Of a stretch of 64,000 bases of DNA, positions 1 to 64,000 are shown one piece after another; position 1 is the stretch's first letter; every line of letters starts with the position of its first letter. Where the stretch lies: the IMG/VR virus record IMGVR_UViG_3300045988_162375, positions 746-64,745 of that record; one strand, written 5' to 3'. The notes beneath the pieces were generated by a model that had not been told where the DNA came from, made no database searches, and saw only the letters and a list, made by a program, of their open reading frames with translations. Source of the DNA: a virus. Both the position numbers and the translations under genes were made by a program.

Positions 1-170
1 ATCTTCAAATTCTTTCGGAGAACGATCTTTTGTAACTAAAGTATAAGAGTCTCCTAAACTAAAATTCATTTCTAAACCGTCATTTGTAATTTTTCTTAAT
101 GTAAACATAAATGTATATATTTATAAATTATTTTAAACTAGATATGTAACATAGAGTTCTTTTTAGGAGC

Positions 171-2396
171 TCACGCTACATCATTTAGTAATCTTAGTAT
201 AGTAGAATCATCAAGCCTTTCGAAAAGTTCTTCAGGCCCTTTGTAAAGATTCATGTCTATAGCTTTTTCTATGGGTTCAATTTTCTTAGGAATAGTTGGA
301 TTGTTTATATTACTTTTATAGAACTGATTCTCTGTTCTAATTAAATAATCACCTGTATGGTTCTTATTTCTAAGTTCCTGAACCTCTTCTAAGGTATATT
401 CATGATTTGGATCTAAGTTATTATTAAATCTTAATTCCATTAATCTGGAATAAATTTCTGAAGGCTTATCCAAATAATCATCATACATTATTCCTGGTTT
501 TAATCCTCATCTATCAATAATTTCTTTAACTTTGGCAATCTGTTCATAAGGTCTAGATGCATGAGTTCATTCATGAACTTCTGTACTCTTACTATCATCA
601 GAAGTGGTTATAGTTTTCTCTTTATGATTAGTCAGTCCTGTAATTTTGTCTGGGAGTTTTCCTCTTTTAAAAGAGTATTTACTCATAGATGCAGATTGTC
701 TAAAATAAGGATTTTCTATTAATCCAGGTATTGCCAATCATCCTGAATAAACAGAATTATTTTTAAGTTTATCCTTCCTCTGTGAAAGCCAATTATCAAC
801 TCATTTTCGAGTATCTGCCCCATCTTGAGCTTTAATAATTCCTCCATTACGTTCTGATACTACCTCATTTCCAAGAACACCTGCTCCAAGTATCGCAGGG
901 ACTCTTCTAAATAGTTTCAAAATGATATCCTTATTCTCTTTCCAGAAGGTTTCTTTAGCTTGTAAAGCATTAGAGCTTGTAGTTGGATAAAACATGTTAG
1001 CATCCCAACCTATATCAAAGATTTTTCTAGCTTCTGCTTCAGTTAATTCTGTAAAAGAAGATCTAATTCCAGCTTCTGCTTTGTAACTCATAATTTTGGA
1101 ATAGATATCTTTAGCACTATTTTCCTGAGTCATTGCAGATAAGAATTTCTTTGGAAACAATTCTTTCTCTGTATAAGATAATCCTCTTAATCCAAAATCA
1201 TCTTTAGTTCCAACTAATTCTTGAAGAAGCTGCTTTGATGCAGCCTTCTCTCCTGAACGTAAAGGATTTTGTGCTGCAGGATTTATTTCAAGAATTGTTT
1301 CTCCAGTCTTTGCATCTTTAAAGAATGCATAGTCATGTTTTGGATTCCCCAATCTAACTTTAGAAATTTGTTTAGGAACCTCTAATCTTTCAGCTGCGGG
1401 AATACTTCCTTTATGAGCATTTCTTAACCATTTTAAAGCACCATGAAAATATTTAGATAAATCATTTCCATAATGTTTATAAATTAAGTTAACCCCTTCT
1501 TCTGCAGCTTTTACTGTATTTTTAGCAACTTCAGATGTACCCACTACTCCAGGCAGAACAGCTAGTCTGGCCGAATCTTCATCTCCTGTTGCTGAGTAAT
1601 GGAATAAACCGTAAGGAGTAAATCCTGCTATAATATCAGCTGGAGCTGAATTTGCTCAACTACTTGAATTGTATGCAGTAGCAATATTGTCTCATTTCCT
1701 TCTAAGTCAAGATCTATTATCTGGCCTAATTTCTCCAGTCCCTCCTGCTTGAAATTTAAGAATTCCTCCATGCTTAGCAGAGGCTATTATTCTTTTTAAA
1801 GTATCTGCATACCTTGGGTCTGTTGCATAACCTCCTTTGGCCACTCTGTCTGCGAAACCAGCTATGTCTCCAGTAAAAGCCTTATATCTATTGTTATTAA
1901 GTAGAGAAATTTTATATTTTGCATAGTCTTCTAAAGAATCAAAATCTCTAAAACTATCATTAATATAAACATCTTTCCCATTAATAACTTCTCTTGTTCT
2001 TTTTACAGAGCCTTTTCCTTTAATACCTCCAAAATTGAATTTACCAGAAGGCTTAGTTCCTCAGGCAGATTCAAGTCCATCTTGTGCAACTAACGCTTTG
2101 GCATAGGCTGCATTTAAACCCATTTGAGAAAGGATTCTCTCATAAATAGGTAACATAGTAGCCTTAAATTCATTCTTACTTTTAAATGAAGATGAAGTAG
2201 TATTTGCACTAATTGTATATGTAGGTTTTGATTCTTTCTCGGCTCTAGGTTTTTCTTCTGAAGTTTCAATACTATCAATTATAGGGGAGGCAACAGTTTG
2301 AGGTCTTGGTTCTTCCCTTTCTTCAGTGTTGAATCTGGGTAAATAACCTTGGAGCTCATCTGGCTCTCTTGAAATTTTCCTATACCATGTTTTCAT
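171..2396 (-). CDS. Large peptidoglycan hydrolase with glucosaminidase (FlgJ-like) domain, probably virion-associated. A single ~742-codon gene containing ~8 in-frame TGA codons
   Basis: Track ORFs 171-488, 801-1544 and 2061-2396 (all minus) are in the same frame and separated only by TGA codons. Motifs GGYATDPRYADTLKRII and FQAGGTG match the mannosyl-glycoprotein endo-beta-N-acetylglucosaminidase family. Confidence 0.55.
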
Positions 2397-2486
2397 AATT
2401 ACATTATTTGATCGCTACAAATATAGTTATAGTTCTATTTAAAACAAAATAAAAGCAGCCTTTTTATGAAGACTGTTTTTAAGAGG

Positions 2487-3029
2487 CTATGCTTTGAAAA
2501 AATAGATTTTATTTCCCTTAGTATTTCCTATATCAATATGTAATCATGTAATTTCTCCATTATTATCTCATTTTTCTACACGTATAGGATACTTAAGTTT
2601 ATCTTGATTATTTTCGAGGATTTCTCGCATCTCTTTAGCGGTTAATTTAGCTGATATTAAATCAAAAGCTTGTCCTTTATAATGATAACCTGTAGGAGTT
2701 CCTACTCCACATCCAGGTTCTCTATAACCGCTGTAATTTCTAGAGCCTCCTGCAGCTCAATTGTTACATATAAGAGGGGCATTTAGAATTTCTCTAACGT
2801 TCTCCAATGCTTCAAGAGCTTTTGGATCTAGAAATTTTATAGCATCATCTCCATATTGATTATATATTTTAGATGATACTAATTCTTTTACTTGAAAGTA
2901 TTTATTTGCTTGCATAATTTTATACAATAAGTTATGGCTACATCATTCTCTAATTAAAGACGGAATTGGTCTTTTGAATACAATATTGTTAGGATATAAT
3001 TCTTTTAAATATTGAATTATTTTCTTCAT
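2487..3029 (-). CDS. Peptidase M15-family (L-Ala-D-Glu / D-Ala-D-Ala peptidase-like) cell-wall hydrolase, 181 codons with 3 in-frame TGA
   Basis: Minus-strand reading from ATG at 3029 gives MKKIIQYLKELYPNN...; SGYR, HxxGxAxD (HYKGQAFD) and WLHID zinc-ligand motifs; frame passes through 3 TGA; stop TAG. Confidence 0.55.
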
Positions 3030-3266
3030 TTCTTTTCTTGAAAAATGAATTGTTTTATCATATATTTTTAGTTTTTGCTAAGTTAGAAAAAATTTTGGGA
3101 AAATACAAGAAATTGTGTAGGTATTGTGAGGGAGAGGACAGTTATCTTTTTTGGCCCCCTCCCGTTTTGTTTGGAAAATTGAAAATTTTTTTGAGACTAA
3201 TTTTATGGAGTTATATTTATACAAATATCTGGGAATAATCCCAATAACAACAAAACTCTCAAAACA

Positions 3267-5708: not shown

Positions 5709-6296
5709 TTAATCTTCCTTCTCTTCAACTTCTTGTTCATAAGTAGTTAGTCTTTGATGTTGGATAACATTTTCTTCCAGAGGTTCACTGTTAACTGTTT
5801 CCCAACTTTCTTTTGGAATATCTCCAATTGCATAATCTACTTGAAATCTAAGTAATTTGGATCTATCTGCAAGTTTCCCTTTAAAGAAGAATAGAGGGTT
5901 TAGTTTGTATCTAGATCTACTTACTGCATAGATTAAATGTTTTTTAAGTAAAGCAGATATTGCATTATTGACAGTTCCAAGAGATACATTAATTTCTCCT
6001 GCTCACTTTTCTTTATCTTCCTTAAGAATAGTGATGATGTTTCCTTCATTTGTTGTTCCATTATTCATAGGTACATCTCTTCATATTAATGCCATTATTT
6101 TCATTTGAGTGGCATTATCCAAATTGATGAAAGAACTAATATCATTTAAGTAGACCATAATAAATTCATCATACGTTGAAAGTTTTTTTACTTGACGTAC
6201 TGTTTCTACTACATGAATATTTGTTATTTCACCAGTTGCTTGATCTAGATCATAATGTGTATTTTGATCTTTAATTTCAACTAATCCCATATTCAT
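5709..6296 (-). CDS. RepA_N-like replication initiator / DNA-binding protein, 196 codons with 2 in-frame TGA
   Basis: Track ORF 6081-6296(-) continues in frame through TGA to a TAA at ~5709-5711; residues ...GEINVSLGTVNNAISALLKKHLIYAVSRSRYK... resemble RepA_N wHTH; direct repeats lie immediately 5' of the gene (6297-6480). Confidence 0.4.
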
Positions 6297-9235: not shown

Positions 9236-9309
9236 GGTGGTTTCATCTAATTGCGTTAGGATACCAGAGTCTCAGTCTGGAAATAGAGGTTGGAGTCCTC
9301 TAACCACTA
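9236..9309 (+). tRNA. tRNA-like gene with anticodon loop GTCTCAG (CTC by canonical numbering), G1-U72
   Basis: Acceptor GGTGGTT/AACCACT, anticodon stem CCAGA/TCTGG, T arm AGAGG-TTGGAGT-CCTCT; D arm irregular; overlaps 5' end of track ORF 9290. Confidence 0.4.
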
Positions 9310-9340
9310 CAAATGTTTAACAATATCACAAATTGTACTT

Positions 9341-10069
9341 ATGACAAAAAATCTGTTCTCGAATCGCACTCCTTTTGAGAAGTGTTATCTCGTAGAAAAC
9401 GTAAAACAGCTTTTGTTCATTCCTGGGAATCGTAGTCTTAGAATGGCTCATGTCAAGAGCATTTTCAAAGCCTTCCTTAACGGAGAGTGGATTCCTCCCG
9501 TGTTTGTCACTTCCAAAGGAGAGGTACTGGATGGTCAGCATCGTATCGCAGCATTTCGTATGCTGAAGGAGAAATACCCTGACAGCAAAGCAGCTCTTCC
9601 TGTGATGGTTGTTAATGTAGACGAATCAGCTCTGCTGTCGGCAATCAAGTTTAATTCGGGACATGCCAATTGGGTGATTGAGGACTACATGAGAGCGCAT
9701 CTGGAGAAAGGTATTCATGGGTATGAGCAGCTTCGTGACTTTTTGAAGGCTTACCCTGAATTCGAAATCAAAGCTGCAATCCAGCTTATCAAGGGTAAGC
9801 ACTCTACGAAAGAGTTCAAAGAAGGAGCTCTGAAAATCTCTGATGAAGAGTACATGGAAGCTTCCAAAAAGGCTGCTGCTCTGTGTCTTATCTCAGTGAA
9901 ACTCAACACCAAGGTCGTTTTCCGTCGGGATGTCGTGGTGGCATTCTACCGTGTATGGGATAAAATCCCTAATATCCAGACGTATGTCAAACGACTGAGT
10001 CTCTTCAAAATGCCGCTCACTGAATCCCGTAAAGAATGGGAGAGAGCGTACGAGGACTTACTGCGGTAA
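9341..10069 (+). CDS. ParB-like nuclease domain protein
   Basis: LDGQHRIAAF motif (ParB/Srx fold); start moved to ATG ~9341 because the track start overlaps a tRNA. Confidence 0.5.
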   Translation: MTKNLFSNRTPFEKCYLVENVKQLLFIPGNRSLRMAHVKSIFKAFLNGEWIPPVFVTSKGEVLDGQHRIAAFRMLKEKYPDSKAALPVMVVNVDESALLSAIKFNSGHANWVIEDYMRAHLEKGIHGYEQLRDFLKAYPEFEIKAAIQLIKGKHSTKEFKEGALKISDEEYMEASKKAAALCLISVKLNTKVVFRRDVVVAFYRVWDKIPNIQTYVKRLSLFKMPLTESRKEWERAYEDLLR

Positions 10070-11571
10070 GACCTCTATAAGTCAATAAAGTTTTTACTTT
10101 ATGCCTGCTACGATTTTCGAGCGTGTGATTAAATAGAAATTCCTTTAAGGAATTCTATTATGAACGCAGGTCGGTGATGGTCACTATCTCAGCCTCGCCA
10201 CAACGAAATACGCGCTGTCTGCTGTTGTTTTCTTTTTACATAACTTGAATCAACTGGATTAAACCTTGATTTAGAGAGGGAATTAAAGGCAATCCTTATA
10301 AATAAGCCTGTATTTTACTTCTGCCGTGGTAACGCAGATGAATAAGTGTTTGGTTGATTTAAGGTGAATCGTTTTCTTCGATTGTAGGTTCTTGTCGTAA
10401 GAAGTAACCTACGGGTTGTAGAGTTCGGATTTACCAATCCTTAAACCTATTTAACCAACTCTACAAGCTTTGTAAATTTAGTCACTTTACAAAGTGTAGC
10501 TCTACCTGCTGAGCGAGTCCTCTTACGGAGTTCGAGGAAGGATGCAGGACGACTTGCGCCAAGGTCCGAAGAATGTCTACTTCGTCGACACAGCAAGAGA
10601 TCTTTACTTGAAGGCTCATACTTTCTTTGTTTGTCCAGAGAGTGTAAAGATTTTAATATTTATGTGGCCGATTAATTTATCTATATCTGTAGCCTGGCAA
10701 GCGTTGACAATGCAGATATTTTTTTAATTTGAAAATTATGATTGGAATATATATATTCTGGGGAGTGATGACTATTTTATCCTTTTCACTATGGTTCATT
10801 GCGAGAGCTGCGTGGATTAAGAATACTCCTGATAAAAATAAATGTTTTTGGGTTTGTTTAGTAGGAACAATTCTTATACAATTTTTATTATTTGCAGCAG
10901 TAGAAACCGCAAAACCTAAAACAACTCTTCCAACAGAGAAAGTAAAAGTTACTATTAATAGTAACATTCCTAGAGACTCTATAGAATTAATAGTCAATTC
11001 CAATTATGAAGCACATAGTACTGATCTCCCATAACAGCGAAAATTCTTGGAAAGGTTTTTCAAGTTATAAAGAAGCTTTACAGTATATGGATTATTTAGA
11101 GGAACAGTTTGACGATATTACTGTAGAACTGGCCTATCTTTCTGAATAAGAAATTTAATCAAACAATAAACAGTATGAAGGGTGGAAAACCTGGACTGAA
11201 TGTCCGTCGCAAAGGTGCTCTTGCTCACCTAGAAGCTACGTATGCAGCTTTCAAAAAAGCAGGAAAAGACAAGGAAATCAAAGGGAAGATCATTCCTTTT
11301 GACCATGAACTCGCTCGTATGGAGCGTGAAATGGAAGTACTCAAATCTCGAATCTACAACTAAAGAGAAAACACATGGCAATTATCGGACAAGTACATCG
11401 TATCACTGAGAAACTCAGACTGGAAGCGATGAAAAAGGAAGCACGTCGGACTCGTCATTACATTCAGAAGATCGAGTTCTTCAACCCGAAAACGAAAAAG
11501 AAAGAGATTCGGGAGATCGAACATTTCAAGCCCAAGAAGAAAAAGGAAGAAACCGCAGCGTAAAGCTGTAG

Positions 11572-11644
11572 AGAGCTATAGTATTTATAGGTAAGTACAC
11601 TACTCTGAGGAGTAGAGATAGAGGTTCAAATCCTCTTAGCTCTC
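11572..11644 (+). tRNA. tRNA-like gene with a non-canonical 6-nt anticodon loop (possible pseudogene)
   Basis: Perfect acceptor AGAGCTA/TAGCTCT and T arm AGAGG-TTCAAAT-CCTCT, but anticodon arm CTACT-CTGAGG-AGTAG has a 6-nt loop. Confidence 0.3.
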
Positions 11645-12205
11645 CAAGACTTTTAAAATTTGTATAATGGAAAAAGTGACACAAAATGTACCTGATACAG
11701 GTTGTACAGATCCTGATGAATTCGTGAATGACCCTTGTATCGAAGCCATAGAGGATGAAGAACTTCTTAACATAGAATAATATGTACATAATAACTTTAA
11801 TTTTAGGAATTGTAGGTGTCGTCCTTCTTGCTTTTGCAATCAGGGAAGATGAAGATGATCGAGCCTTCCCGTTGGGAATACTATCAGTAGTCTCTCTGAT
11901 ATGCTCAGTGATGCTCTGGTGCTATACTGACACCAAGCATGAACGAGAACAACCCTTAACAACAATTTCAACTTTTGTTGAGGAGCATTCTCAATATCTC
12001 TCTCCAACTACAGTGAGAACTATAAGTGCAGCACCTATTCGGAAAATACCTGATGGATGTTTCGTATATAATGTTATTCTGGTTGATCAGGATTCTATGT
12101 ATACGTATTCTGCAGTTCTGGACCCTGAGAACATTGAGGTAGTTAATTTTATTCTCGAAGAATCTATTCCTCGACTCGAAAATCATCAAAATAAAAAAAT
12201 AAACA

Positions 12206-12868
12206 ATGGCAAAAAATCGTCTTTTTGGTTGGATGTTCGTTGAGGACTCCAATAAAGAGTCTGAGGCAGTTAAACCTTGTCCTTCACAGGAAGCGTCTGC
12301 TCCTGCTGCGGTTGCTGTTCCCAGTCCTGTCGTAACTTCTGTGCCTGCTCCTACGATTATGGCATCAGGAGATGTAGATACCAAACTGGTGGAACTCCTG
12401 GAACGCAAGATCAACGAAGCAAATCTTCCTGGTCCTGACTATCTGGAACTTCTCCAGTCTGCGGAACAGATGAAGCAGTATATCCCTGATGAGACTACAC
12501 GTCTCAAAGCTGCTTTTGGTTCCATTCAGGGCATGGATCCTCGGATGACGAAGGATGTCGTTCTGGCATCGATTGACACCTATCTGGGTGTAATTGAAGC
12601 TGAACGAGGGAAAGCAAAGCTTCGCATGGAAAAGCTTCGTAAGGAAACTGTCGAGGATAAGGCAGAAGAGCTGAAGGCAACGAATCTTCGTATCGAGCAG
12701 CTTCGTGAGGAACTGAAAACTCTCACAGACAAGTCAATTGATCTCAATTCCGAAATTCAGAAGAATACGGCAGAGACGACCGCATTTGAAGCTAGAACGA
12801 ATGCGACCATCGACAAGGTTACGAATCGTCTGAACGAGGACAAGGTCCGACTGGCACAAATTCTGTAA
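12206..12868 (+). CDS. hypothetical coiled-coil protein
   Basis: 220 aa, Pro/Ala-rich linker then long heptad-like region; higher GC. Confidence 0.4.
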   Translation: MAKNRLFGWMFVEDSNKESEAVKPCPSQEASAPAAVAVPSPVVTSVPAPTIMASGDVDTKLVELLERKINEANLPGPDYLELLQSAEQMKQYIPDETTRLKAAFGSIQGMDPRMTKDVVLASIDTYLGVIEAERGKAKLRMEKLRKETVEDKAEELKATNLRIEQLREELKTLTDKSIDLNSEIQKNTAETTAFEARTNATIDKVTNRLNEDKVRLAQIL

Positions 12869-12870
12869 GT

Positions 12871-13905
12871 ATGATGCTGCCTGAAGGTTCAAGTCTCTCT
12901 AACTGGGAAAAACCAGGAGGCAAAACTGGTATGGTAGTTTTGGGTTTGTTAGGTGCAGGAGGGTTGATGCTTTTTTATAAAGCTCTTCCTTTCCTGATTA
13001 CTCTGGCATCTAATACACTGTACTTTGGGCTGCTCCTGGGATTAATTGCAGGAATTATCTATCTCCTGTGTGATCCCAAGTTCAGGAAAATCTGCTCTGC
13101 CACTTATTTTATGTTAATGAGAAAGCTGACTGGATTGGTTATTGAAATCGATCCTATTGCTATCGTGGAACAACGTATCCGTGATATGCAGAAAAAGTCA
13201 GCTGACATTAAAAAGGTAATGGGAGATCTCAGAGGTTGTATCATTCGTTCTAAGAACGATATTCAGAACGATACAAGGGAAATGCGTAATTGCATGGATG
13301 AAGCACAAGTGTCTGAGCGTAATGGAAACATTGCAATGGCAACAATTCAAAAGCGCCAAGCACTTCGTCTTAAAGAATCGTTAGATGATCAGTTACTTGC
13401 TCTTAAGAACTCAGAAATGTGGTTTGATAAGCTTAAAAAGCTTGAAGAGTATGCTAATCTGACGATTCAGGATGTTACTAACGAAGTAAATATTCGTAAG
13501 AAAACATTCGAGCGCATTCGTGCCCAGCACAAAGCTTTCAAATCTGTAATGTCTATCGTTAAGGGAGACCCTGACGAATTGGCAATGTTCACTGATGCTA
13601 TGGATTTCATGGCAAAGGATATCTCGGATAAAATCGGAGAGATGGAACATGTCATTGACTCTACTACGGGTATGCTGGCTGACCTGGACGCAAAGAATGG
13701 TGTTGCCAATATGAGGGCAGAAGAATTGTTGGAACGATACAACAAGTCAGGAATTGACAGTCTCTTTAATAAGTTCTCTGATGGTCGTAAGGCTATCGCT
13801 GCACCGAAAGTAGGGGAGTATGTTCAGTTCCAAGAAATTCTCAAAGTCCCCGTAAATGGTAACGAAGCCGCTCCCAAGTCCCTCGACGATTTCTGGGGTG
13901 AGTAA
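12871..13905 (+). CDS. membrane-anchored coiled-coil protein
   Basis: 344 aa; two N-terminal hydrophobic helices then a long charged helical region; adjacent to 12206 and probably operonic. Confidence 0.4.
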   Translation: MMLPEGSSLSNWEKPGGKTGMVVLGLLGAGGLMLFYKALPFLITLASNTLYFGLLLGLIAGIIYLLCDPKFRKICSATYFMLMRKLTGLVIEIDPIAIVEQRIRDMQKKSADIKKVMGDLRGCIIRSKNDIQNDTREMRNCMDEAQVSERNGNIAMATIQKRQALRLKESLDDQLLALKNSEMWFDKLKKLEEYANLTIQDVTNEVNIRKKTFERIRAQHKAFKSVMSIVKGDPDELAMFTDAMDFMAKDISDKIGEMEHVIDSTTGMLADLDAKNGVANMRAEELLERYNKSGIDSLFNKFSDGRKAIAAPKVGEYVQFQEILKVPVNGNEAAPKSLDDFWGE

Positions 13906-16154: not shown

Positions 16155-16155
16155 T

Positions 16156-47885: not shown

Positions 47886-48034
47886 TATGTGGTGGTTGAT
47901 TGGATTACTATTAGCTATTGCTATCATACTTAGTCCTATGTTATGGGCTATTTATAAACATATAACGTATGAGAAGTTGAATAACTAAAATTTTAAGTGG
48001 AGTTGCAATTATTTTAGGAATAACTGTTTACTTC

Positions 48035-49899: not shown

Positions 49900-50388
49900 A
49901 TGAAAAAACTAAATATAGCACTCGTTGCACATGATACACGAAAACAAGAATTAATTGATTGGGTTAAATTTAATAAACACTTATTATATAACCATCATAT
50001 TACTGCTACTGGCACTACAGGCAGATTACTTGGTAATATCATGGTTAAACAAGTTGCAGAAACAGACTGGAAAGGAAATGAATATTTTGTAAATAAATAT
50101 TTAAATGTAACCTCTGTTCTTTCTGGACCTCTTGGAGGAGATCAAATGATTGGTGCAATGATTGCACAAGGTCAAATTGATGTATTAATCTTCTTCTGTG
50201 ATAATCTTATTACACAAGGACATCAAACAGATATTTCTGCATTAACTCGATTGGCATCCTTATATAATATTGCATTTGCAACAAATAGAACTACAGCAGA
50301 CATGATTCTTACTTCGTCATTATTTGCGAATGAAGAATATTGTCCTGTAAAAGCGGATTTTAGTAGTTATTTAAATCGCAAACTTTAG
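49900..50388 (+). CDS. mgsA: methylglyoxal synthase-like protein (MGS domain)
   Basis: IALVAHDTRKQELIDWV...LYNHHITATGTTGRLL...GPLGGDQMIGAMIAQGQIDVLIFF follows the E. coli MgsA motif order. Confidence 0.55.
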   Translation: MKKLNIALVAHDTRKQELIDWVKFNKHLLYNHHITATGTTGRLLGNIMVKQVAETDWKGNEYFVNKYLNVTSVLSGPLGGDQMIGAMIAQGQIDVLIFFCDNLITQGHQTDISALTRLASLYNIAFATNRTTADMILTSSLFANEEYCPVKADFSSYLNRKL

Positions 50389-50774
50389 TTATGTCAAAAA
50401 GTCGCAAACTTCCAATTTTTAAAGATAAAGGTCTTAAAGGCATTTATCACAGAATCGTTAAAAGGAGAATAAAAAATTATTTAAAGAGTAATTTTTTAAG
50501 ATTACAAGATGAGGATTTTGATTGTAATATTCCAAATCCTAAAACAATAGTTAGCGACTACAATTATAGCGATTATACAATCGATTTACGTTATGAAAAA
50601 GGTAAAAGATGGGGAGAAGAGTGGAAAGCTAAATTCTCTAGAAAATAAACGTATCTTAGATTACATAAAGGCTGTAAGGAAGAAATCAAGGGAAGAGGAG
50701 ATCCAATTGTATGGAAAACCTCTTCCTAAAACTAAGATTAAAGAATCAAAAAAGATATATAAGAGAAATAAAAA

Positions 50775-52151
50775 ATGACTGCATTAGATTTTTTTTATGA
50801 TGAGTTTGTTGCATTTTGCAATAAGTATGATCTAGTGGAACAATTTAATAAAGGGTTGCAGATAAAAGGTTTTCCTTACGAGTTAAGCTGTAAACCCTTT
50901 ATTTTATCTAGGTTATCTCCAGAAATATTTAATTACTCTTTACATTGGGCAGAAACTCCTACCCCAAAATCACATTCATGGAGAGAAATTCATGATCTTT
51001 GGGCAGAAAAAAGTGCAAAGATAGAAAATAGCTTCAAGAAGAAATCAAAAGTATTTGAATCATTTCCAGTATACTACTTTAAGTATAAAGGATATGATTA
51101 TTTAGACTATGTTTCCGATTATATTAGGCAGTTATACTATGCAGATCAGTTAATTCCAGTAAGAGTTATAGATGTAGAACAAGTAGACGTAAAAAATGGA
51201 TGCCCAGAAGGTGTACATATTATTTCAAATATGTCCATGTGGGCATTAAAAATGGTGACTAAGTATAAGGGGGTTGTTGAATATAAGGAGTATGACTTAG
51301 GAAAGAACATTATTAGAATGTCTGATAAGTTTGCATCTATTATGAAAGCATTCCCAGCTGGATTATCTGCCATTCTAGAACTAAATCCTTCTAAAAAGGT
51401 CAATTATCTAGATATTGACTATAATACAGGCAAAGTTTCTTATCTTCCTATAGAGAAAACTCTTAAAAAGGATTTTGAGTCTGTACGTGCATATGCAGAT
51501 AGTAATAGGAAAACAACTACTATAGGACGATTACTCAATAAGTTCAATTGGGCCCCTTATCTAGATAGATGTGATATCGAAAGGATATCTAATTTTGTTT
51601 CTGGATATGGAGAAACTCTTAGTGTAGAAATTTGGGAACCTGAAAAAATACGTATAGCATATTTAGAAGATAATTATGCAGAAGAACTAAGATGTATAAA
51701 ATCTACATTGCATAATTCTTGTATGCGACATGCTGAGTGTCAAGATTTTTTTGAGTTTTATGAAAAAGCTGATGCAAAGATTGCTGTAGCACTTGATGAA
51801 AAAGGTAAAGTTTGTGCCAGAGCAATACTTTGGCAAATCAATGATTCTTTATACTTTCTGGATAGGATTTACTCAATTAGTCCTTTTTACTATGTAAAGT
51901 TTGCAAAAGCTGTTGCAAGTAAGGTTCCTATAGACTTTTATAAAGTAGATAGAACTATATACAATATAAAAACTCTCACTGAAGCAGAAATGCCAGTTTA
52001 TAGATTATTTAGACCGAAGTTAATAAATTATGAAGGATTGGTTCCCTATGTAGATACTTTCTATATATTTGATTCTACTTGTGGAGAACTATTGACTGAT
52101 GCAAAAATTTTTAAACTTCAAACTACTGAAGGAAATTTAATACATATATAA
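50775..52151 (+). CDS. hypothetical protein
   Basis: 458-aa ORF. Confidence 0.4.
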   Translation: MTALDFFYDEFVAFCNKYDLVEQFNKGLQIKGFPYELSCKPFILSRLSPEIFNYSLHWAETPTPKSHSWREIHDLWAEKSAKIENSFKKKSKVFESFPVYYFKYKGYDYLDYVSDYIRQLYYADQLIPVRVIDVEQVDVKNGCPEGVHIISNMSMWALKMVTKYKGVVEYKEYDLGKNIIRMSDKFASIMKAFPAGLSAILELNPSKKVNYLDIDYNTGKVSYLPIEKTLKKDFESVRAYADSNRKTTTIGRLLNKFNWAPYLDRCDIERISNFVSGYGETLSVEIWEPEKIRIAYLEDNYAEELRCIKSTLHNSCMRHAECQDFFEFYEKADAKIAVALDEKGKVCARAILWQINDSLYFLDRIYSISPFYYVKFAKAVASKVPIDFYKVDRTIYNIKTLTEAEMPVYRLFRPKLINYEGLVPYVDTFYIFDSTCGELLTDAKIFKLQTTEGNLIHI

Positions 52152-52152
52152 T

Positions 52153-52518
52153 ATGAAAAATGCACGTTTTTATTACAGTGTTCCGCTGAGCACTGTAAAG
52201 GTTTTAGTTGTAGGAACTCAAGATTTTATTCCTGATGATGTTGCTGGTTTTTACAAATCTTCAATTCAGCCTATGCCTCGAATTACTATTTGTAGTCTGC
52301 TTAATGAGGATCGTACAAAATTATCTTTTGGAGTAGCTGTATGTTCAGCTAAAGATCGTTTCGTAAAGAAGATTGGTCGTGAGTTAGCTTACAAAAGAGC
52401 CCTTGAACATCCTTTCAAAGTAGCTGAAGTTACTAAAGATAATATTCGTGAAGTACGAATGAATGTATCTCAGGCTATTGAAGGAGAAATATGGGCAATG
52501 CATCCTAAGAAATTCTAA
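52153..52518 (+). CDS. hypothetical protein
   Basis: 121-aa ORF. Confidence 0.35.
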   Translation: MKNARFYYSVPLSTVKVLVVGTQDFIPDDVAGFYKSSIQPMPRITICSLLNEDRTKLSFGVAVCSAKDRFVKKIGRELAYKRALEHPFKVAEVTKDNIREVRMNVSQAIEGEIWAMHPKKF

Positions 52519-52668
52519 TGGAGTACGAAATTATAATTCATGGTAAAGTTTCTACTAAAAATGTAGATAAATTCAAAGAATGCTTCGGAAAAGCATTAAC
52601 AGATAGTGAATCCACCTTTAGGGGGAATACTTATATCTATGAATTTACAGAATACGAAGAGGTAAAAG

Positions 52669-53082
52669 ATGATACAGAAAGCTAGGGAATTTACTGTTCC
52701 TATTCTTAATGTCAAAGTGTCAATCTTAATTGGAAGTCCACTATCCGTAGAAAGTTACCTTCAGGATGTTCATAACAAAGTATTCGGACATAGTGCACCA
52801 AATGTAGTTGCAGAAACCTTTTATTCTACTGAATCAGATGCTGATGAGTTTTTGTATATTGCATTATACGATGATACAGATATAAAAGATTCTGCATATA
52901 ACGTTATACATGAATGTCTTCATGCTGCTCATAAAATCTGTACTTTCAGAGGAGTTGAGTTAGATGAAGAGTTTCTATGTTATTTGCAGGGATTCTTAAT
53001 TAACAAAGTATTTGAATGTTTGAATGCTGAACTGATGGTAGTTACAAACCATCAATTGACTGCGGAGGATACTCTGCAATAA
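52669..53082 (+). CDS. hypothetical protein
   Basis: 137-aa ORF; 3' end overlaps RNase H gene in another frame. Confidence 0.35.
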   Translation: MIQKAREFTVPILNVKVSILIGSPLSVESYLQDVHNKVFGHSAPNVVAETFYSTESDADEFLYIALYDDTDIKDSAYNVIHECLHAAHKICTFRGVELDEEFLCYLQGFLINKVFECLNAELMVVTNHQLTAEDTLQ

Positions 53083-53459
53083 TAACTCAAAATGGTGAAG
53101 TTATAAAAAAACTTTACAGAGGTTATAGAAACACTACTAACAACCGTATGGAACTTCTAGGGGTCTTAGAATGTCTTAGATATTTTACAAACCCTGAACA
53201 AATAACCATATATTCGGATTCTCAATATGTAGTATCGAGTATTAACAACAAGCATCTTACCAAGTGGGTTGAAGACAATGATCAATCCAAAAAGAATCTT
53301 GATTTGTGATATCCAATTTATGAATTATTGAAGTTTCATACGGTTACTTTTGTGTGAGTAAAAGGCCATAATAATAACAAATTTAATGAGTTAGCGGATT
53401 TATTTGCAACTCATGCAAGTGATTGTTTAGATCTACCAGAAGATAATGGTTCATTTTAA
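53016..53459 (+). CDS. rnhA: Ribonuclease H (RnhA-like), 148 codons with 3 in-frame TGA
   Basis: MFEC-W-TDGSYKPSIDCGGYSAI...TNNRMELLGVLECL...IYSDSQYVV...NLDL-W-YPIYELL...VTFV-W-VKGHNNNKFNELADLFA. TGA falls at the two Trp positions conserved in E. coli RNase HI (DLW, EWVKGH). No ORF in track because of TGA. Confidence 0.6.
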
Positions 53460-53958
53460 GATTAAAAAAGTCGGAAACCACTGGTATCCATGTGTTAATC
53501 ATGAATATGACAGTGACATATCGTTGGATCCAAAAATTGAGAAATATCTCAATAACTACTCTGTAAAATCTGGATATGTGGATGAAGTTACAATAGAGTT
53601 GGAAGAGATTCCAATGATAACAGAAGATATTAATTTAATCTTCTTTAACGAGTCTGATATTACAAGATATTATACTACTGATGACGATTTCAATCTTAGG
53701 TTTGAAATCAATGACCATGAATTTGAGATTGATGCATATTTATTTGGATGCTTTGAATTGCAATTCAATTTAAATTTTCATGAAAATCTCTATAAATTAC
53801 ATATCTGGTAATGAAATATGAAATCAGGATAGTGCAGATTACTCCCAATGGTTGTTGTTTAGTATATGCTAAAGACTATGAGACCGATGAGGAAATTGAA
53901 GAGATGACAGTGTATAATAAGAAATTACGCTGTTTCATGACAAAGGAACGCAAAAACG

Positions 53959-55570: not shown

Positions 55571-56401
55571 ATGGATACAGAATTTGGAGCTAAGTTAAAG
55601 GAAGCTATAACGGCTAAAGACAATGATATTAATAGCTTGGTATGAAAAGACAAAACTGGTGTAAACATTCGTTTAATGGATATTTCCCAGAATGAACTAA
55701 AGCGATATCATCGTCATTGCGAACAAATGCTAACTAACAGGGACATTTACAAACCTGGTAAATTAGTAATTCGTGAAAACATCCAAAAATGTTGAGATTC
55801 TTGTAATGCTGAATTGTTTGCAAGATATTTAATGCATGATTGTGAGACAGATATTAAAACCAATAAAGATCTACTTGACTTTATCAATGTCCAAAGAAAA
55901 GCAAATAATGTAGATGTGGAAGACAGTATTTCAGTTTTATTTACTGGACTTCCTCCTATCTATGAGAAAGTTACTGTAGGGAAGTTAATGGATGTATGTT
56001 TTGATAAGCTTGATGTACTTAACAAAAAGATGATTACAGACAAGTTTATTATTGCGCAGGGAATCTGACTCACAGACGAAGAAAAACAAGAGCTCACAGA
56101 ATTAGAAACAGGGGGTAAAATTAGAAATCGAATGGAAGTTATCAAGGAAAGACTTTGTCTTAATCCTGATATTAGACTGCGTGTAAGTCCTACAGGACTT
56201 TCATTTGCTGAGTTTAGAGCTTTAATTCAACTTTCTGATCTCCCTAAAATATCTTCCTTGTCTACAATTGCTCTTAAAACTCTTAGAGACAAAGTTTTAC
56301 TGCTTTTGGACAATGATCTTGATTATCATATCAATAAATGGATGAAAATTAAGAAGGATATTGAACGAGTAGCAGAATATAAAAACTGGAATTTAGATTA
56401 G
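55571..56401 (+). CDS. hypothetical protein, 277 codons with 3 in-frame TGA
   Basis: Frame from ATG 55571 runs through TGA at ~55640, ~55784 and 56066, joining track ORFs 55814-56068 and 56132-56401; contains both TGG and TGA codons. Confidence 0.4.
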
Positions 56402-57364: not shown

Positions 57365-58585
57365 ATGGACAAAACTCAACGTCAACGATTAGGCGTTCAA
57401 AAATGAATTAATAATAAAGGAAATGGGATTTGGGTTTGAAGTACTGGTGTTGGTAAATCATTTGGAGCTTTAATGGCTTGTGTGAAATTACTAAAAATTA
57501 GACCAGATGCTAAAATTCTAATTTCTGTACCTACAACAATTCTCAAGGAACAATGACTAAGAGACGTAGCTAAAACTAAATTCTTTGGAAATGTTACTGT
57601 TGAGGTTATTAATTCTATTTTAAAAAAATCTTGAGAAGTTGATTTTCTAATAATTGATGAGCTTCATACTGCGGTATCGGAGCAGTCAATAAAAATATTT
57701 GATCAAGTTAAGTATGATTTCTTTCTGGGGCTTACAGCTACTTTAGAAAGACTTGATGGAAGAGAGGAATTACTATCTTTATATACTAGAGTAATTGATG
57801 TCATTACAACTGAAGAAGCAATAAAAAATGGATGATTATCGCCATTTAGGTATTACAAAGTTCTTGTGGAGGTTGATGACATGGATACTTATTATGTAAT
57901 GAACCAAAAGTTTAATTCAGTTTTTGCATTCTTTAATTTTGATTTCAGTTCTGCAATGAAATGTGCAACTGATCGAAAGTTCCGTAATAATTACGCTTAT
58001 AAGATGGGATATGATAGAAAGCAGGTTTTAAATGCTGCTATGGCGTGGATGCAATTAATGCAGAAGCGCAAAAAATTTGTTATGTCCCACCCTAAAAAGT
58101 TTGAAATAGCGAAAAAAATTATAGAAGCAAGAAAAGATAAAAAAATTATTACTTTTTCAGCCACTATTAAAGATGCGGAATCTTTAAAAGTTGGATATAC
58201 TCTTCATAGCAAAAAGAAAAAACAAGAAAACTCAGAAACTATTGCATTGTTTAAGTCTCAATCTTCAGGGGTTCTTAATACATCTAAAGCAGCTAATGCA
58301 GGATTGGATTGCCCTGATATAAATTGTGAGATTAGAATTAGTGGAACTAGTTCTGGAATTGATGCAAGGCAGATTTTGGGAAGGGGATTGCGTTATGTTA
58401 ATAATAAGATAACTGAAGTTTTTACTTTGGTTGTTAAAGGCACTAATGAAGAATCCTGGTTTAATAAGGCCCATCAAGGCATTTCATATATTACTATCAC
58501 TGAAGATCAACTTGACTTAGTTTTAAAAGGAGAAGAAGTAATCACAAGAAAACGAGATGATGTAATTACTAACTATAGATTTTAA
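57365..58585 (+). CDS. SF2 DEAD/DEAH-box-type helicase, 407 codons with 5 in-frame TGA
   Basis: MDKTQRQRLGVQK-W-INNKGNGIWV-W-STGVGKS (Walker A), LIIDELH (Walker B), continuing in frame into track ORF 57866-58585 with QILGRGLR motif VI. Confidence 0.55.
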
Positions 58586-58650: not shown

Positions 58651-59250
58651 ATGGAGTTAAATACAATACTTAACATAATGGCAGAATATCATATTAGTGC
58701 AGACGAACTGTTACTAATATGATTAACTCTCTATGCTCGGGATGAAGAAGGCCATTCTGAGCTTTTCTTAAAGTGGTGGACAGATTGTGAGGGAAAACAG
58801 AAACTGAAAACCATGTTTGAGAACCTAAAAGAAAAATCCATAATCAAGAAGAATTATAATCCAGAATCTTATGTTCCTAATGATATTGAATTTAATAAAA
58901 ATTTTCTAAAGAAGTATTATAAACAATCAGGAGTTCTTGGAAAAGAGCTATTTGATAACTATGAACCATTTATCCAAATTAATGGAAAGATGGCCAGTCT
59001 TAGAAATATTGCTAAGAAATTTTATACTTTAGAGGAATTTTACTTTTATTATTCTTCTCAAATAGGACATAATCCAGAAAAGCATAAAGAGGTGATGGAA
59101 ATTTTACGATGGGCTCGTGAAAACAAGCTTTGTAAAGTTTCTATTCTTGAGTTCGTTGCTTCTCATAAATGGAATGAATTTGCACAGATGAAGGCTGAAG
59201 GATTTAGTCCTGATGTTGGTACTTCTTTTGATGTTTATCAGGATTTTTAA
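58651..59250 (+). CDS. hypothetical protein, 1 in-frame TGA
   Basis: ATG 58651 in frame with track ORF 58813-59250 through one TGA. Confidence 0.35.
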
Positions 59251-60344
59251 TGGAGGATCTAAATTTACTTTGGCATTTAATTGAGCAAGGCAGAAAAGGG
59301 GAAAATAAAGGTTTGTCTGTAGGATTACCTAAATTAGACAAGATTATAGGTGGAATACAACCCTCGAGATACTATTGTATATCTGGAGCATCTTCTGCAG
59401 GTAAAACTGCTTTAGTTCTGTATTTCATATATCGGCTTTTTAAGGATTATCCTAAAGAACCTATATATCTTGTTTATTTTAGTTTGGAGATTGGTTCTGA
59501 AGTGCTACTAGCGAAGCTTATGGCTTTGTATTGTGCAGAAGAATTTGGAGTATATCTTACTATAAATGATATCCTTTCCTTTGATTCTATTCTCAGTGAT
59601 TCTGATTATCAGTATCTAAAGAAGGCAAGAGACTGGATTGCAACTCTTGGTTCCAGGTTAATTATTCTTGATAAGGGTCTTAATGCTCGCATTCTATATA
59701 AAGAGATTTGTGAGCTTATGAAGAAATTAGGTTCTATAGAAAATGTAGGAAATAAAGAAGTTTATGTTCCAAAACATCCTAGGCAAAGAGTAATTGGAGT
59801 TATTGATCACATGTCATTAATTAGACCAGAAGAAGGAAGAACCTTAAAAGCTGAAATTGATTTAACTTCGTCTTTTATGGTTACACTAAAACGTAAGTTT
59901 TATCTTTCTTGAATGGCTTTAATGCAGCAGAATAGAGAATCTTCTTCTATGGATAGAAGAAAAGCAGAACTTAATGAACCAGGTTTAAATGACGTAAAGG
60001 ATTCAGGAGGACCTGTTCAAGATAGTGATGTGGTTCTTCAACTATATTATCCTGCAAGAGACAAAATTCCAACATACCGAGAGTATAAAATTCTCGGACC
60101 TCATAGTTTAGCTGGAAGATTTAGAAGTATTATTGTATCTAAGAATAGATATGGTATTGCAGACAGAGTAATAGGATGTGGATTTTATGGAGAAGTTGGA
60201 TGGTTTAAAGAACTTCCACTAGGAAGAGATATTACTGACTTCACAAAATATTTGGACATTAACGCTAACATTAGAGGTATAGATACAACTGTAGTAGGTA
60301 CAGTAGAAATAGATAAGAACAACATCGTATATAGTTTATCATAA
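59250..60344 (+). CDS. DnaB-family replicative helicase (RecA-fold C-terminal domain), 1 in-frame TGA
   Basis: Walker A GASSAGKT; track ORFs 59250-59912 and 59913-60344 are joined by a single TGA; H4 region LMQQNRESSSMDRRKAELNEPGLNDVKDSGGPVQDSD matches DnaB. Confidence 0.55.
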
Positions 60345-60345
60345 T

Positions 60346-61083
60346 ATGTCTATTGTATTACCAACAGCGAAGGTTCCCGCTGAAACTCAGGATCCTAAAA
60401 ACTTAATTCTATTTGGACTTCCTAAAGTAGGAAAAACTACCATTCTTAGTACACTGGAAAATAATCTTATTCTTGACTTTGAAAATGGTTCTACATATGT
60501 AGATGCTCTTAAAGTTAAGGTTTCTAGTTTAAAAGAGCTAAAAGAGGTTATTAAAGCTATCAAGGATGCAGGAAAGCCATATACTTATATTACAATTGAT
60601 ACAATCACAGCCTTAGAAGAAATGACCAAAGATATGGCTCTTAAAATGTGGCAAAATTCTCCTCAGTTTACTACAAAGTATGAAATTAAGGACGTTACAC
60701 AAATTCCTAATGGAGCTGGATATAGTTTTTGAAGGCAGGCACTGGAAACAGTTATTGACTTAATTGCCTCTGCTGCTCCTAACTTAATTATTTGTGGTCA
60801 CGTTAAAGATACAGCATTATCTGAAGGTCTTGATGGATCTGTAAAAGATCTTGATCTTGTAGGTAAAACTAAAAGGGTATTATCTGCTAAATCTGATGCA
60901 ATTGGATTTGTTCATCGTGATGAAGAATCTAATTTGTGTATCAATTTTGGTATGAATGGAGAAGTACTTTGTGGTGCTCGTCCTGCTCATTTGGCAAATA
61001 AAGATATCATTGTAGCTGAGTATCAAGAAGATGGTACATTTGTATCTCATTGGGAGAGAATCTATCCCTCTCTGTCTAAATAA
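60346..61083 (+). CDS. RecA-like/AAA ATPase (Sak4-like?), 246 codons with 1 in-frame TGA
   Basis: LILFGLPKVGKTT Walker A; the ORF continues past TGA at 60730 to TAA at 61081. Confidence 0.45.
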
Positions 61084-62294: not shown

Positions 62295-62308
62295 ATTTAG
62301 AAGTTTAG

Positions 62309-63352
62309 ATGCAATTTACATTAGGACCGACCACTGTTACTAAAGAACTAATTCTGAACAGTGTAAGTGAAGAAACTTTAATGGAGCATTATTTAGGAGT
62401 CCCTGTGAAAAAGGGACTCCTAAAATCTCCGTTAAGACAAGATAATAAACCCACTTGTGCTTTTTATAGAAACAAGAAAGGAGATCTTATATTTAAGGAC
62501 TTCCGTGGTGATTTTTCAGGTAATTTCATTTCGGTTGTAATGTATAAATTTCAATGCTCTTACGGAAAAGCCTTAAATATTATTGCTAATGACTTTGGAA
62601 TAGTCTCTCGACCTAAACTGCAAGTTAATCCCCCTCTTATTAAATATACAAATAAAAAGTTTGAGGAAACACAAGAAGCTATTATACAAATAGAAGTGAA
62701 GGATTTTGAACAGTATGAGTTAGATTGATGGCTAAAATTTGGAGTTACTAGAAAGATATTAAGGAAATTTAGAATATTTTCCTGTAAGAACGTTTTTCTA
62801 AATGGAAACATATTTCATCTTCATAAAGATAAACAATTAGTTTTTGGATATTTTGGAGGTATTCGAGAAGATATTGAACGCTGGAGAATATATTTTCCTG
62901 GCAATACAAAGTATAAATTTATATCTAATTGAAAATCTTTTAGGTTGCAGGGAGCACATGCTCTTCCCAAAGAGGGAGGAGAATATCTTGCAATTACTAA
63001 ATCTTTAAAAGATGTTGCATGTTTATATAGTTGTGGTATTACAGCTATAGCCCCAATTTCTGAGAACTGTTTTGTTACAGAGGCTCAATTTGAAAGGCTA
63101 AGTAAAAAATTTAAAAAAATTATTCTTTTTTACGATAATGACTCTGCTGGAATAACTCACATGAATAAGTTTAGAAAACAATTTCCAGATGTTTATGTGT
63201 TATGAATCCCCCGTCATTTTGGCGCGAAAGATATTTCTGACTATTATAAGAAGTATGGTAGGGAAAAAACACTGAACTTAATCGAACAAGCTAAACTTAA
63301 GGTTAATGCCGAAGAAGAAAGAAGAAGAAAGTCCAAAGAAAAAGAGGTCTAA
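62309..63352 (+). CDS. DnaG-type primase (Toprim domain), 348 codons with 3 in-frame TGA
   Basis: Track ORFs 62309-62728 and 62945-63205 share a frame through TGA; Toprim ILFYDNDSAGITHM; putative zinc-binding N-terminal region. Confidence 0.45.
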
Positions 63353-63701
63353 ATCATACTCTAGAACTAAAGGACATTCATATGAAACTAAAATAGCTAA
63401 GGAACTTAGGGAATTAGGATACGAAGGAATTGTTACCTCCAGATCTGAATCTAAATCTACTGATGATAAGAAAGTAGATTTGATTGATACTCAAAACCAA
63501 TTTCCTTACTATGTTCAGTTAAAGTGTACCCAGAATACTCCAGCATATCATCAAATAAGTGCAGAGTGTCCATTAAAGGATAAACCATTTATTTTAATCT
63601 GAAATAAACAAGTTAAAAAGCAGACTAATATTTGCTCAGCTGGAGAAGTTGTTATTATTCCTAAAGAAGAATTTTATAAATTAATTAAATTGAAAGAGTA
63701 G
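63306..63701 (+). CDS. hypothetical basic protein, possible PD-(D/E)XK nuclease, 1 in-frame TGA
   Basis: ...VDLIDTQNQFPYYVQLKCTQ...; the frame continues through TGA at 63600 to TAG at 63699; overlaps the primase 3' end in another frame. Confidence 0.3.
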
Positions 63702-63730
63702 AAGAGGGATCTTCTGCTCTTTTTTGTTAT

Positions 63731-64000
63731 ATGAAAACATTATTTGTATTTCAAATTCAATCATTTACTGATGTGGTTACAAATAGTTCTAGTGAGCTGT
63801 TTGTATTTACTGGAACCACTGAAGTTGTAAGTGATATATTAGATTCTAATGTTCCAGGATGGGAACACGAATATGATGACCCACAGTCAGTACAGGATTT
63901 AAGTCCCAGCTCTTTAGAAACTTATCTTTCTTATGCTTACAACAATTATGATTGGAACTGGGACAATAAACGAATAACTAGAGAAACAAGTAGACAAACT
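63731..64000 (+). CDS. hypothetical protein (truncated by window end)
   Basis: ATG at 63731, open to end of window. Confidence 0.3.
   Translation, partial: MKTLFVFQIQSFTDVVTNSSSELFVFTGTTEVVSDILDSNVPGWEHEYDDPQSVQDLSPSSLETYLSYAYNNYDWNWDNKRITRETSRQT

Follow-up and report, generated by a model that had tools for sequence, protein, structure and literature searches.

Evidence that an uncultured phage reads TGA as tryptophan, and a candidate intron-split tRNA(UCA) decoder with a second anticodon-like hairpin

Reassignment of TGA to tryptophan is established in large gut phages of the clades Jade, Sapphire and Agate, and tRNAs with a UCA anticodon were found in only 35% of the phages that use genetic code 4, non-canonical structures being suspected (Borges et al. 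2021/2022, 10.1101/2021.08.26.457843). In E. coli extracts, all 13 of the phage tRNA(UCA) species for which mass spectrometry was carried out inserted Trp (Seki et al., PMC12636597); these are ordinary 75-nt molecules as far as they are described, with no long arm or intron mentioned. Here we describe a 64-kb stretch of viral DNA (IMG/VR record IMGVR_UViG_3300045988_162375, positions 746 to 64,745; the whole stretch is referred to as the window) in which TGA is a sense codon in many genes, and which encodes a predicted tRNA(UCA) whose gene has an intron interrupting the anticodon loop and whose variable region carries a second anticodon-like hairpin. The source resembles the Jade, Sapphire and Agate phages in its ~175 kb size, its low GC content, the reading of TGA as Trp, lysis genes that are the most recoded, variably recoded replication genes, TGA-rich homing-endonuclease genes, and a suppressor tRNA accompanied by many other tRNAs. 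It differs from them in that the suppressor is intron-split and has the second anticodon-like hairpin, neither of which is mentioned in 10.1101/2021.08.26.457843. The terminase gene, on which placement in one of these clades would rest, lies outside the window. As in the tandem tRNA-Trp(UCA)/(CCA) genes of Mycoplasma, in which tRNA-Trp-derived UCA tRNAs read UGA as Trp, an ordinary tRNA-Trp(CCA) gene adjoins the tRNA(UCA) gene at several loci of the family described below.

The window has 35% GC, phage-type genes and at least 27 tRNA genes. Many metagenome contigs of ~173-178 kb, as well as IMG/VR viral contigs, carry identical or near-identical sequence, indicating that the source is a widespread uncultured phage of ~175 kb, and cohort-style sample names suggest an origin in human stool. 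One such contig, ERZ1310345 NODE_6 (176 kb), matches the window without a difference over the 8.6 kb compared (42090-50656). A nucleotide search of GenBank phages with the window returned no close relative and at most short weak matches, and when the protein of the high-GC gene at 4156-4785 was searched for in GTDB genomes, there was no match. With the DnaB-like protein, tblastn gave matches of only 25-33%, to uncultured faecal phages and crAss-like phages.

Genes were called with a self-trained codon-bias gene caller, each code being run on the same window. Code 11 gave 101 genes at a coding density of 0.751, and re-calling with code 4, a check proposed in an initial annotation made from the sequence alone, gave 97 genes and raised the density to 0.835; treating TAG or TAA as sense brought no gain (0.748 and 0.677 respectively). 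The code-4 genes contain 61 in-frame TGA and 190 TGG codons, and the 96 that are complete terminate in TAA (74) or TAG (22) and none in TGA. TGA is never required as a stop codon in this phage. Once doubtful N-terminal extensions are excluded, internal TGA codons are present in 24 genes on both strands, and the RNase H gene (three TGA), which was missed by the gene caller, comes on top of these, bearing out the initial claim that many genes are continuous only if TGA is translated. TGAs are crossed by Pfam domains in 11 proteins, the domains being Glucosaminidase, Peptidase_M15_3, RepL, GIY-YIG, HNH, RNase_H, ResIII/Helicase_C, DnaB_C, AAA_24 and Toprim. Dozens of independent assemblies, at 82-100% identity, carry these TGAs as well, so sequencing errors do not account for them.

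Recoded proteins were aligned to solved (PDB) homologues from standard-code organisms, and at the 12 TGA positions covered the homologues have Trp at six, Phe or Tyr at two, and Gly at none. Two of the RNase H TGAs ('DLw' and 'w-VKGH') coincide with Trp residues of E. coli RNase HI, the same two conserved positions from which Trp rather than Gly had initially been proposed, and the third corresponds to Phe/Tyr. Two of the five TGAs in the XPB-like helicase ('vqkW' and 'keqW') lie on Trp of archaeal XPB, at 'ERW' and 'EQW'; 'LESAwG' of the lysin aligns with 'LETGWG' of FlgJ; and in the GIY-YIG protein the TGA of 'rrW' is at the Trp of I-TevI 'KRWKRH', with another TGA at Phe. The sole TGA of the DnaB-like protein aligns with Val/Ile of DnaB structures, so that the expected coincidence with Trp was seen for RNase H and in part for the helicase and not for this protein. 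For the M15-like lysis protein, no homologue that could be used was found in the PDB. We also made a codon-level comparison of 46 related contigs (82-100% identity), covering 155 TGA or TGG codons. TGA and TGG are interchanged at 18 sites, as against five other changes, two of which sit upstream of true start codons, and TGA was never exchanged with GGN. This interchange among relatives shows TGA to be synonymous with TGG. The homologue alignments and the interchange, together with a density gain seen only under code 4, support the reading of TGA as Trp (code 4), not Gly (code 25), as the initial annotation had favoured.

The use of TGA varies greatly among modules. It accounts for 72% of Trp codons in the lysis genes (138-3029; 13 of 18 Trp codons in the two genes), the highest share of any module, 54% in the tRNA-island block (23138-30309, mostly homing endonucleases), 42% in the replication module (53811-63701), 7% in 3267-22908, and 4% in the metabolic and small-ORF (open reading frame) block (30701-53811; 4 TGA vs 98 TGG), a difference with a chi-square p of 4e-16. 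The structural genes are outside the window, and the lysis figures compare window modules only. Altogether 73 of the 97 genes are TGA-free. Reassignment applies wherever TGA occurs, and the frequency of its use is modular; the notion of a genome-wide sense use of TGA is thus correct as to its meaning, which is uniform, but not as to its use, which ranges from 4 to 72% by module. That replication genes are recoded too, and not only late genes, was correctly recognized at the outset. Higher-GC genes had been described as having TGA neither as stop nor as sense codon; they lack TGA stops, but those with GC of at least 0.37 contain 2 in-frame TGA vs 53 TGG. In recoded gut phages, recoding is heaviest in the lysis genes and varies in the replication genes (10.1101/2021.08.26.457843), and the module pattern here matches on both points.

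The TGA-free stretch at 32878-42986 encodes the NAD salvage enzymes NADAR, a nicotinamidase-like isochorismatase, NAPRTase/NAMPT and NAD synthase, as well as adenylosuccinate synthetase, a phosphoribosyltransferase-like protein and an IMPDH/GMP-reductase-like protein, purine enzymes being among these. The auxiliary genes of the TGA-poor blocks look as if they were acquired from standard-code donors. None of them terminates in TGA, which fits a genome purged of TGA stops.

Neither default ARAGORN nor Rfam at the gathering score reported a UCA tRNA in the window. With its intron search, ARAGORN identifies a tRNA at 46667-47365 with the anticodon UCA and a 605-nt insert between nucleotides 34 and 35; default finders miss it because the intron splits the anticodon loop. 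The search for a tRNA(UCA) recommended in the initial annotation was therefore rewarded within the window (46667-46699 and 47305-47364), and a suppressor supplied from outside it, as had been suggested there, need not be invoked. A tRNA search of the window flanks (5.8 kb upstream and 8.3 kb downstream) found none further. Joining the exons gives a predicted tRNA of 93 nt, with U34-C35-A36 in the decoding arm; the Trp anticodon C34-C35-A36 is absent there, and a CCA loop occurs only in the extra arm, a hairpin in the variable region of exon 2 (GGGGU-CUCCAAA-ACUCC, 47318-47334). The acceptor pairs of this allele are G1.U72, G2-C71, G3.U70 and G4-C69. In thermodynamic folding the spliced tRNA does no better than shuffled sequences (z = -0.16), and support for the tRNA thus rests on covariation. 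Additional tRNAs reported by Rfam were considered as suppressors and rejected, as they correspond to Gly(UCC) and to an odd tRNA with a 13-nt anticodon loop. A tRNA-Sec (selenocysteine) identity was likewise rejected, the acceptor and T stems being 7/5 and the D stem 4 bp, as compared with 8/5 and 6 bp; the ARAGORN label 'SeC' reflects only the UCA anticodon and the long arm.

The joined exon junction sequence occurs uninterrupted in IMG/VR, and intron-less homologues with the same five-helix design are located on IMG/VR contigs of 80-180 kb. Two further anchor searches that left the second arm unconstrained extended the family to at least 22 distinct phage tRNAs of common design, consisting of an acceptor stem, a D arm, a 5-bp/7-nt arm with a CUUCAAA loop (UCA), a short linker rich in A, another 5-bp/7-nt arm, a T arm, and G73. 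When 22 members are aligned, 98.8% of cells are paired and compensatory changes are present in 22 of the 26 pairs and in all five helices, a level of covariation reached by none of 500 shuffles. The loop of the second arm has an invariant U-C-C-A in 22/22 members while its stem covaries freely, which suggests selection on the loop sequence; in the window this loop is CUCCAAA, copying the anticodon loop that tRNA-Trp(CCA) has. With the first loop left free in the search, CUUCAAA was recovered in 19/19 real tRNAs. The Trp identity set of E. coli and B. subtilis comprises G73, A1-U72, G2-C71, G3-C70 and G4-C69 (PMC9976931), and the family acceptor end matches it, with G73 invariant and A1-U72 in 19, G2-C71 in 15, G3-C70 in 19, and G4-C69 in 15 of the 22 members. 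Short-variable-arm UCA tRNAs with the same D arm are also found (L083 and L091).

The double-hairpin tRNA(UCA) shares with class II tRNAs (Leu, Ser, Tyr, Sec) a paired extra arm between the anticodon and T arms and 7/5 acceptor and T stems, but its acceptor end is Trp-like and not that of Leu, Ser or Tyr, and its extra arm has a complete stem of 5 bp and a loop of 7 nt containing the invariant U-C-C-A. Anticodon-loop mimics that bind synthetases are known in the thrS operator and in other mRNA tRNA-like structures (PMC9976931). There, as here, a hairpin copies the cognate anticodon loop and could be recognised by a synthetase, but those mimics regulate translation from mRNAs, whereas the present one lies inside a tRNA and its role in charging is hypothetical. 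Our literature search, which was incomplete in coverage, gave no report of a synthetase-binding anticodon-loop mimic inside a tRNA, nor a description of a phage tRNA(UCA) with an anticodon-like variable arm or an intron. The tRNA architecture and the intron therefore appear to be new, TGA-to-Trp recoding in gut phages being already known.

One IMG/VR contig (3300033463_006083, L088) has a CUA tRNA (an amber suppressor, labelled 'Pyl' by ARAGORN) in the same array as a double-hairpin tRNA(UCA), and at some family loci TAG-sense translation raises coding density more than TGA-sense translation does. A Riemerella anatipestifer chromosome (L114) and a Flavobacterium metagenome-assembled genome (MAG; L118) hold a UCA tRNA-like gene whose D arm is the same but whose long extra arm differs: the loop is CUCCA in L114, and the arm is CCUCCAUUAAG in L118. 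When the tRNA pattern was used to look for a host, it was matched only in a few MAG contigs and in these two Flavobacteriales genomes with a different arm.

The intron boundaries, CTT|...G|CAAA, are the same in 11/11 alleles read (8 distinct), and the interior is exchanged between them: some have a PDDEXK_5 gene, L107-L109 have an unrelated ORF, L101 has an extra insertion, and the 210-nt intron of L110 lacks an ORF. What is conserved is a 3' core of ~200 nt, from ~47105 to 47304, overlapped by the final 45 codons of the endonuclease gene. For five core sequences RNAalifold predicts 56 pairs, nine of them with compensatory changes, and the core includes two hairpins capped by GAAA as well as a motif similar to the conserved group I 'R' sequence, AGACUACA. 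Across the intron, exon 1 and exon 2 form an acceptor stem that is 100% paired in the 8 distinct intron-bearing alleles, and in four of the seven pairs both partners change; such covariation is hard to explain unless the exons act in one RNA. A syntenic, more distant relative (L046) has an intron-less allele, suggesting that the intron is a mobile addition.

Group I introns of tRNAs are known at anticodon-loop positions in tRNA-Leu(UAA), tRNA-fMet and tRNA-Ile. The intron described here resembles those in bacterial tRNAs in its anticodon-loop site, a 5' exon that ends in U, an intron that ends in G, and a compact ~200-nt core with GNRA-capped hairpins, and differs from them in that no Rfam group I match is obtained and in that the gene it splits is that of a phage suppressor tRNA. 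We call it group-I-like from its boundaries, position, endonuclease family and compact structured core. A wider search for distant copies of the core returned only the same phage group. The intron-encoded protein scores 55.2 bits against PF11645 (cut-off 26.1), its best PDB match is 2ost (E = 0.005), and a precomputed PF11645 match is on record for the same gene in a related contig (L017). We take 2ost and PF11645 to represent the family of I-Ssp6803I, the endonuclease of the group I intron in tRNA-fMet of the cyanobacterium Synechocystis. The I-Ssp6803I system is likewise an optional intron ORF of PF11645, but the ORF in the window differs in holding an in-frame TGA, such that its translation would need the very suppressor that is interrupted by its own intron. 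This TGA, at codon 4, is conserved in relatives.

A second split tRNA gene, tRNA-Met(CAU), has well-formed halves and an insert of 749 nt, and was considered as another group I case; this was rejected, since no possible boundary gives an intron ending in G. An ATAA repeat is present on both sides of its junction. The insert holds an HNH-type ORF, the third in the window, where the initial annotation had counted two HNH genes.

This phage reads UGA as Trp, and we think it probable that the split tRNA(UCA) is the decoder, in what is probably a standard-code host. The tRNA encoded at 46667-47364 would decode UGA after the mobile intron is spliced out of the RNA to give the 93-nt form, and would probably be charged by the host tryptophanyl-tRNA synthetase (TrpRS), given its Trp-type acceptor end (G73, with G-C at 2-71 and 4-69) and its CUCCAAA copy of the Trp anticodon loop. 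In a standard-code host the TGA-rich lysis, homing-endonuclease and replication genes would yield full-length products only once the suppressor accumulates, and the TGA-free metabolic and small-ORF genes would be readable from the start, a timing that corresponds to the post-transcriptional model proposed for recoded gut phages. Splicing, charging and the identity of the host are steps that we infer. It is also possible, though we regard the idea as tentative and would not favour it outright, that the invariant CCA-type loop is a surrogate anticodon for the host TrpRS, with UGA being read by the other arm.

Several observations weigh against this explanation. In six genes the only TGA lies in the final 6% of the ORF, where a leaky stop is possible; at one of these sites a relative has TGG. 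Splicing and aminoacylation of the tRNA(UCA) are predictions from sequence comparison, a search with the Rfam group I model (RF00028) at E up to 10 gave no match to the window intron or to the ORF-less L110 intron, and the window allele has G1.U72 instead of A1-U72. The association of the double-hairpin tRNA with TGA recoding in its flanks is suggestive only (p = 0.058), the flanks being short and tRNA-rich, and the ~90 kb of the genome outside the sequence analysed, which holds the structural genes, may also encode another suppressor, a release factor or a TrpRS. Hints as to the host are weak and conflicting: RepL belongs to a Firmicute-plasmid family, the DnaB-like helicase is distant kin of helicases of crAss-like Bacteroides phages, and one binding protein has an OmpA domain.

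A host that natively reads UGA as Trp, as do Mollicutes and some reduced symbionts, would leave the UCA tRNA only to top up the supply. This would account for TGA never being required as a stop and for the recoding of replication genes as well as late genes, but we consider such a host unlikely. Native code-4 genomes that are AT-rich have a strong preference for TGA, whereas here TGG outnumbers TGA about 3:1 (190 to 61) at 35% GC; most genes lack TGA altogether, those that look acquired essentially so and the 30701-53811 block nearly so, and the phage has its own UCA tRNA. A 175-kb phage with at least 27 tRNAs would also be unusual for a host with a Mollicute-sized genome. The ordinary tRNA-Trp(CCA) of the window could instead read UGA as a near-cognate codon, through a Hirsh-type or short-stem mechanism, leaving the split UCA gene a dead relic. 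UGA decoding by CCA tRNAs is documented in other systems (PMC13092985), and the intron matches no group I model. We judge this to be quite improbable, as a relic would not be expected to have exons that covary across the intron in eight alleles, compensatory changes in all helices of a conserved family, or boundaries that remain exact while the intron ORF is swapped or lost, and 13 of 18 lysis Trp codons being TGA would call for very efficient readthrough.

There is next to no likelihood that TGA specifies Gly (code 25), selenocysteine or another residue, or that the interrupted frames reflect pseudogenes, programmed readthrough or assembly errors. The 'SeC' label and the presence of a tRNA-Gly, albeit with anticodon UCC, are set against six aligned TGAs on Trp and none on Gly, exchanges with TGG and never with GGN, and 7/5 stems and a 4-bp D stem that are unlike tRNA-Sec, and ~60 TGAs in ~24 genes recur in dozens of assemblies; for practical purposes code 25, selenocysteine, pseudogenes and sequencing errors are excluded. 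As to the second hairpin, it could be the true anticodon arm (CCA, reading UGG) with the UCA arm inserted, or it could be a neutral leftover of duplication. The Rfam tRNA model, in local mode, does align the CCA hairpin as anticodon arm, and the short-arm UCA tRNAs indicate that some phages can do without the arm. Over its 3' two-thirds the tRNA(UCA) also resembles B. subtilis tRNA-Trp. The UCA hairpin, however, directly follows nt 26, the normal place of an anticodon arm, and the CCA hairpin occupies that of a class II variable arm; CUUCAAA is constant in the 19 tRNAs found with an unconstrained first loop; and the genomes use sense TGA and at several loci have an ordinary tRNA-Trp(CCA) alongside. 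A neutral leftover, moreover, would hardly retain U-C-C-A in every member on a stem that covaries freely. We thus find this account of the second hairpin not very likely, and retain the split tRNA(UCA), decoding with its first arm, as the candidate decoder.

Table 1. Positions of recoded genes, tRNA and intron features, and TGA-poor blocks in the window.
Feature	Coordinates	Strand	Basis
Lysin, N-terminal glucosaminidase domain, 752 aa, 9 TGA vs 5 TGG	138..2396	-	Pfam Glucosaminidase 1.4e-17 crosses TGA
Peptidase_M15-like lysis gene, 180 aa, 4 TGA, 0 TGG	2487..3029	-	PF08291 E = 5e-4, under curated cut-off
RepL-like protein, 2 TGA	5709..6296	-	Pfam RepL 1.7e-6, residues 11-150, both TGAs crossed
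Higher-GC block, almost TGA-free: ion channel, ABC transporter binding protein with OmpA domain, permease, ATPase	9290..17831	+	Pfam
Split tRNA-Met(CAU), well-formed halves, 749-nt insert with HNH-type ORF (23138-23785, 1 TGA)	22998..23821	+	ARAGORN with intron search
GIY-YIG homing endonuclease, 5 TGA, 1 TGG	23879..24523	+	Pfam GIY-YIG 2.4e-9; I-TevI alignment
Ordinary tRNA-Trp(CCA)	25295..25367	+	ARAGORN; Rfam tRNA 59.1 bits
HNH endonuclease, 3 TGA	28684..29418	+	Pfam DUF2116 and HNH_3
HNH-type endonuclease, 4 TGA, 0 TGG	29743..30309	+	HH...N...CPNCH motif in translation
Almost TGA-free block: SPFH, NADAR, nicotinamidase-like, NAPRTase, NAD synthase, adenylosuccinate synthetase, IMPDH-like, small ORFs	30701..53811	+	Pfam, codon counts
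Compact auxiliary-metabolism block, all TGA-free	32878-42986	+	
Predicted tRNA(UCA) exon 1: acceptor 5' strand, D arm, anticodon stem 5' strand, C32-U33-U34	46667..46699	+	ARAGORN -i
Predicted 605-nt intron between nt 34 and 35, after exon U, ends in G	46700..47304	+	Boundaries same in all alleles
Intron-encoded PD-(D/E)XK homing endonuclease, 168 aa, TGA at codon 4	46715..47221	+	PF11645 PDDEXK_5
Predicted tRNA(UCA) exon 2: C35-A36, anticodon stem 3' strand, 27-nt variable region, T arm, acceptor 3' strand, G73	47305..47364	+	
RNase H, 147 aa, 3 TGA	53016..53459	+	Pfam RNase_H 5.8e-28
Replication-module ORF, no assigned function, 3 TGA	55571..56401	+	One TGA = TGG in relative
XPB/Rad25-like SF2 helicase, 406 aa, 5 TGA	57365..58585	+	Pfam ResIII, Helicase_C; several TGA/TGG swaps in relatives
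DnaB-like helicase, 1 TGA	59250..60344	+	Pfam DnaB_C 5.3e-20, residues 21-307, crosses TGA
AAA_24 ATPase, 1 TGA	60346..61083	+	Pfam AAA_24 3.2e-22 crosses TGA; TGA = TGG in relative
Toprim-domain primase, 3 TGA	62309..63352	+	Pfam Toprim_2; TGA/TGG swaps both ways in relatives

The features of the window are collected in Table 1. The protein initially labelled 'RepA_N-like' scores as RepL (PF05732), and one TGA of the M15-like lysis gene is TGG in a relative. Related contigs have strain-variable insertions at window positions 54571/54572 and ~60413-60433 (loci L002, L004, L005 and L006). In some of them a LAGLIDADG ORF lies between the ferritin-like and Metallophos genes (54571/54572), and in others the second insertion is close to where the AAA_24 gene starts and, in L004, contains a LAGLIDADG ORF; many homing elements thus move between strains.

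Other structured RNAs accompany the tRNA genes. A Pistol ribozyme is predicted from a strong match (Rfam RF02679, 73 bits vs a gathering score of 34.5, full length) at 8220-8290 (+), in an intergenic position upstream of tRNA-Glu(UUC). A weak HDV-like match (HDV-F-prausnitzii, 20.3 bits, E = 0.34) at 23821-23876 (+) begins at the last base of the split tRNA-Met and recalls the theta ribozymes beside phage tRNAs, and between tRNA-Trp(CCA) and tRNA-Pro there is a sub-threshold match to YrlA (Y RNA-like; 25405-25515 (+), 31.8 bits vs a gathering score of 69, E = 0.004). The tRNAs for Pro, Lys, Asn, Thr and Arg(UCU) (25517-25608, 27523-27610, 27802-27886, 29645-29727 and 43175-43260 respectively) are 83-92 nt long with long variable arms, unusual for these bacterial isoacceptors, and small hairpins are present in some of the long-arm tRNAs, such as a GAAA-capped one in tRNA-Lys. 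Two tRNA-like genes that both exceed the Rfam tRNA gathering score have atypical anticodon loops: the one at 11572-11645 (+) has a 6-nt loop, CUGAGG, to which ARAGORN assigns a two-base anticodon, and the one at 27343-27422 (+) has a 13-nt loop and is possibly Ile-UAU with a mini-insert.

The locus illustrates how suppressors of code-4 phages can escape detection, through an anticodon-loop intron together with a non-canonical long arm, and annotation of such phages needs gene calls with table 4 and intron-aware tRNA tools. That this tRNA itself bears a conserved copy of the Trp anticodon loop points to a specific way in which host synthetases could charge phage suppressors, and a double-hairpin tRNA of this type could serve genetic-code expansion. 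If the CCA-type loop does act as a surrogate anticodon, codon reading would be separated from synthetase recognition, and the code of a standard-code host would be rewritten without a phage synthetase. A mobile intron with a UGA-dependent endonuclease would, if the proposed explanation is true, add a layer of timing to this program or a selfish-element feedback.

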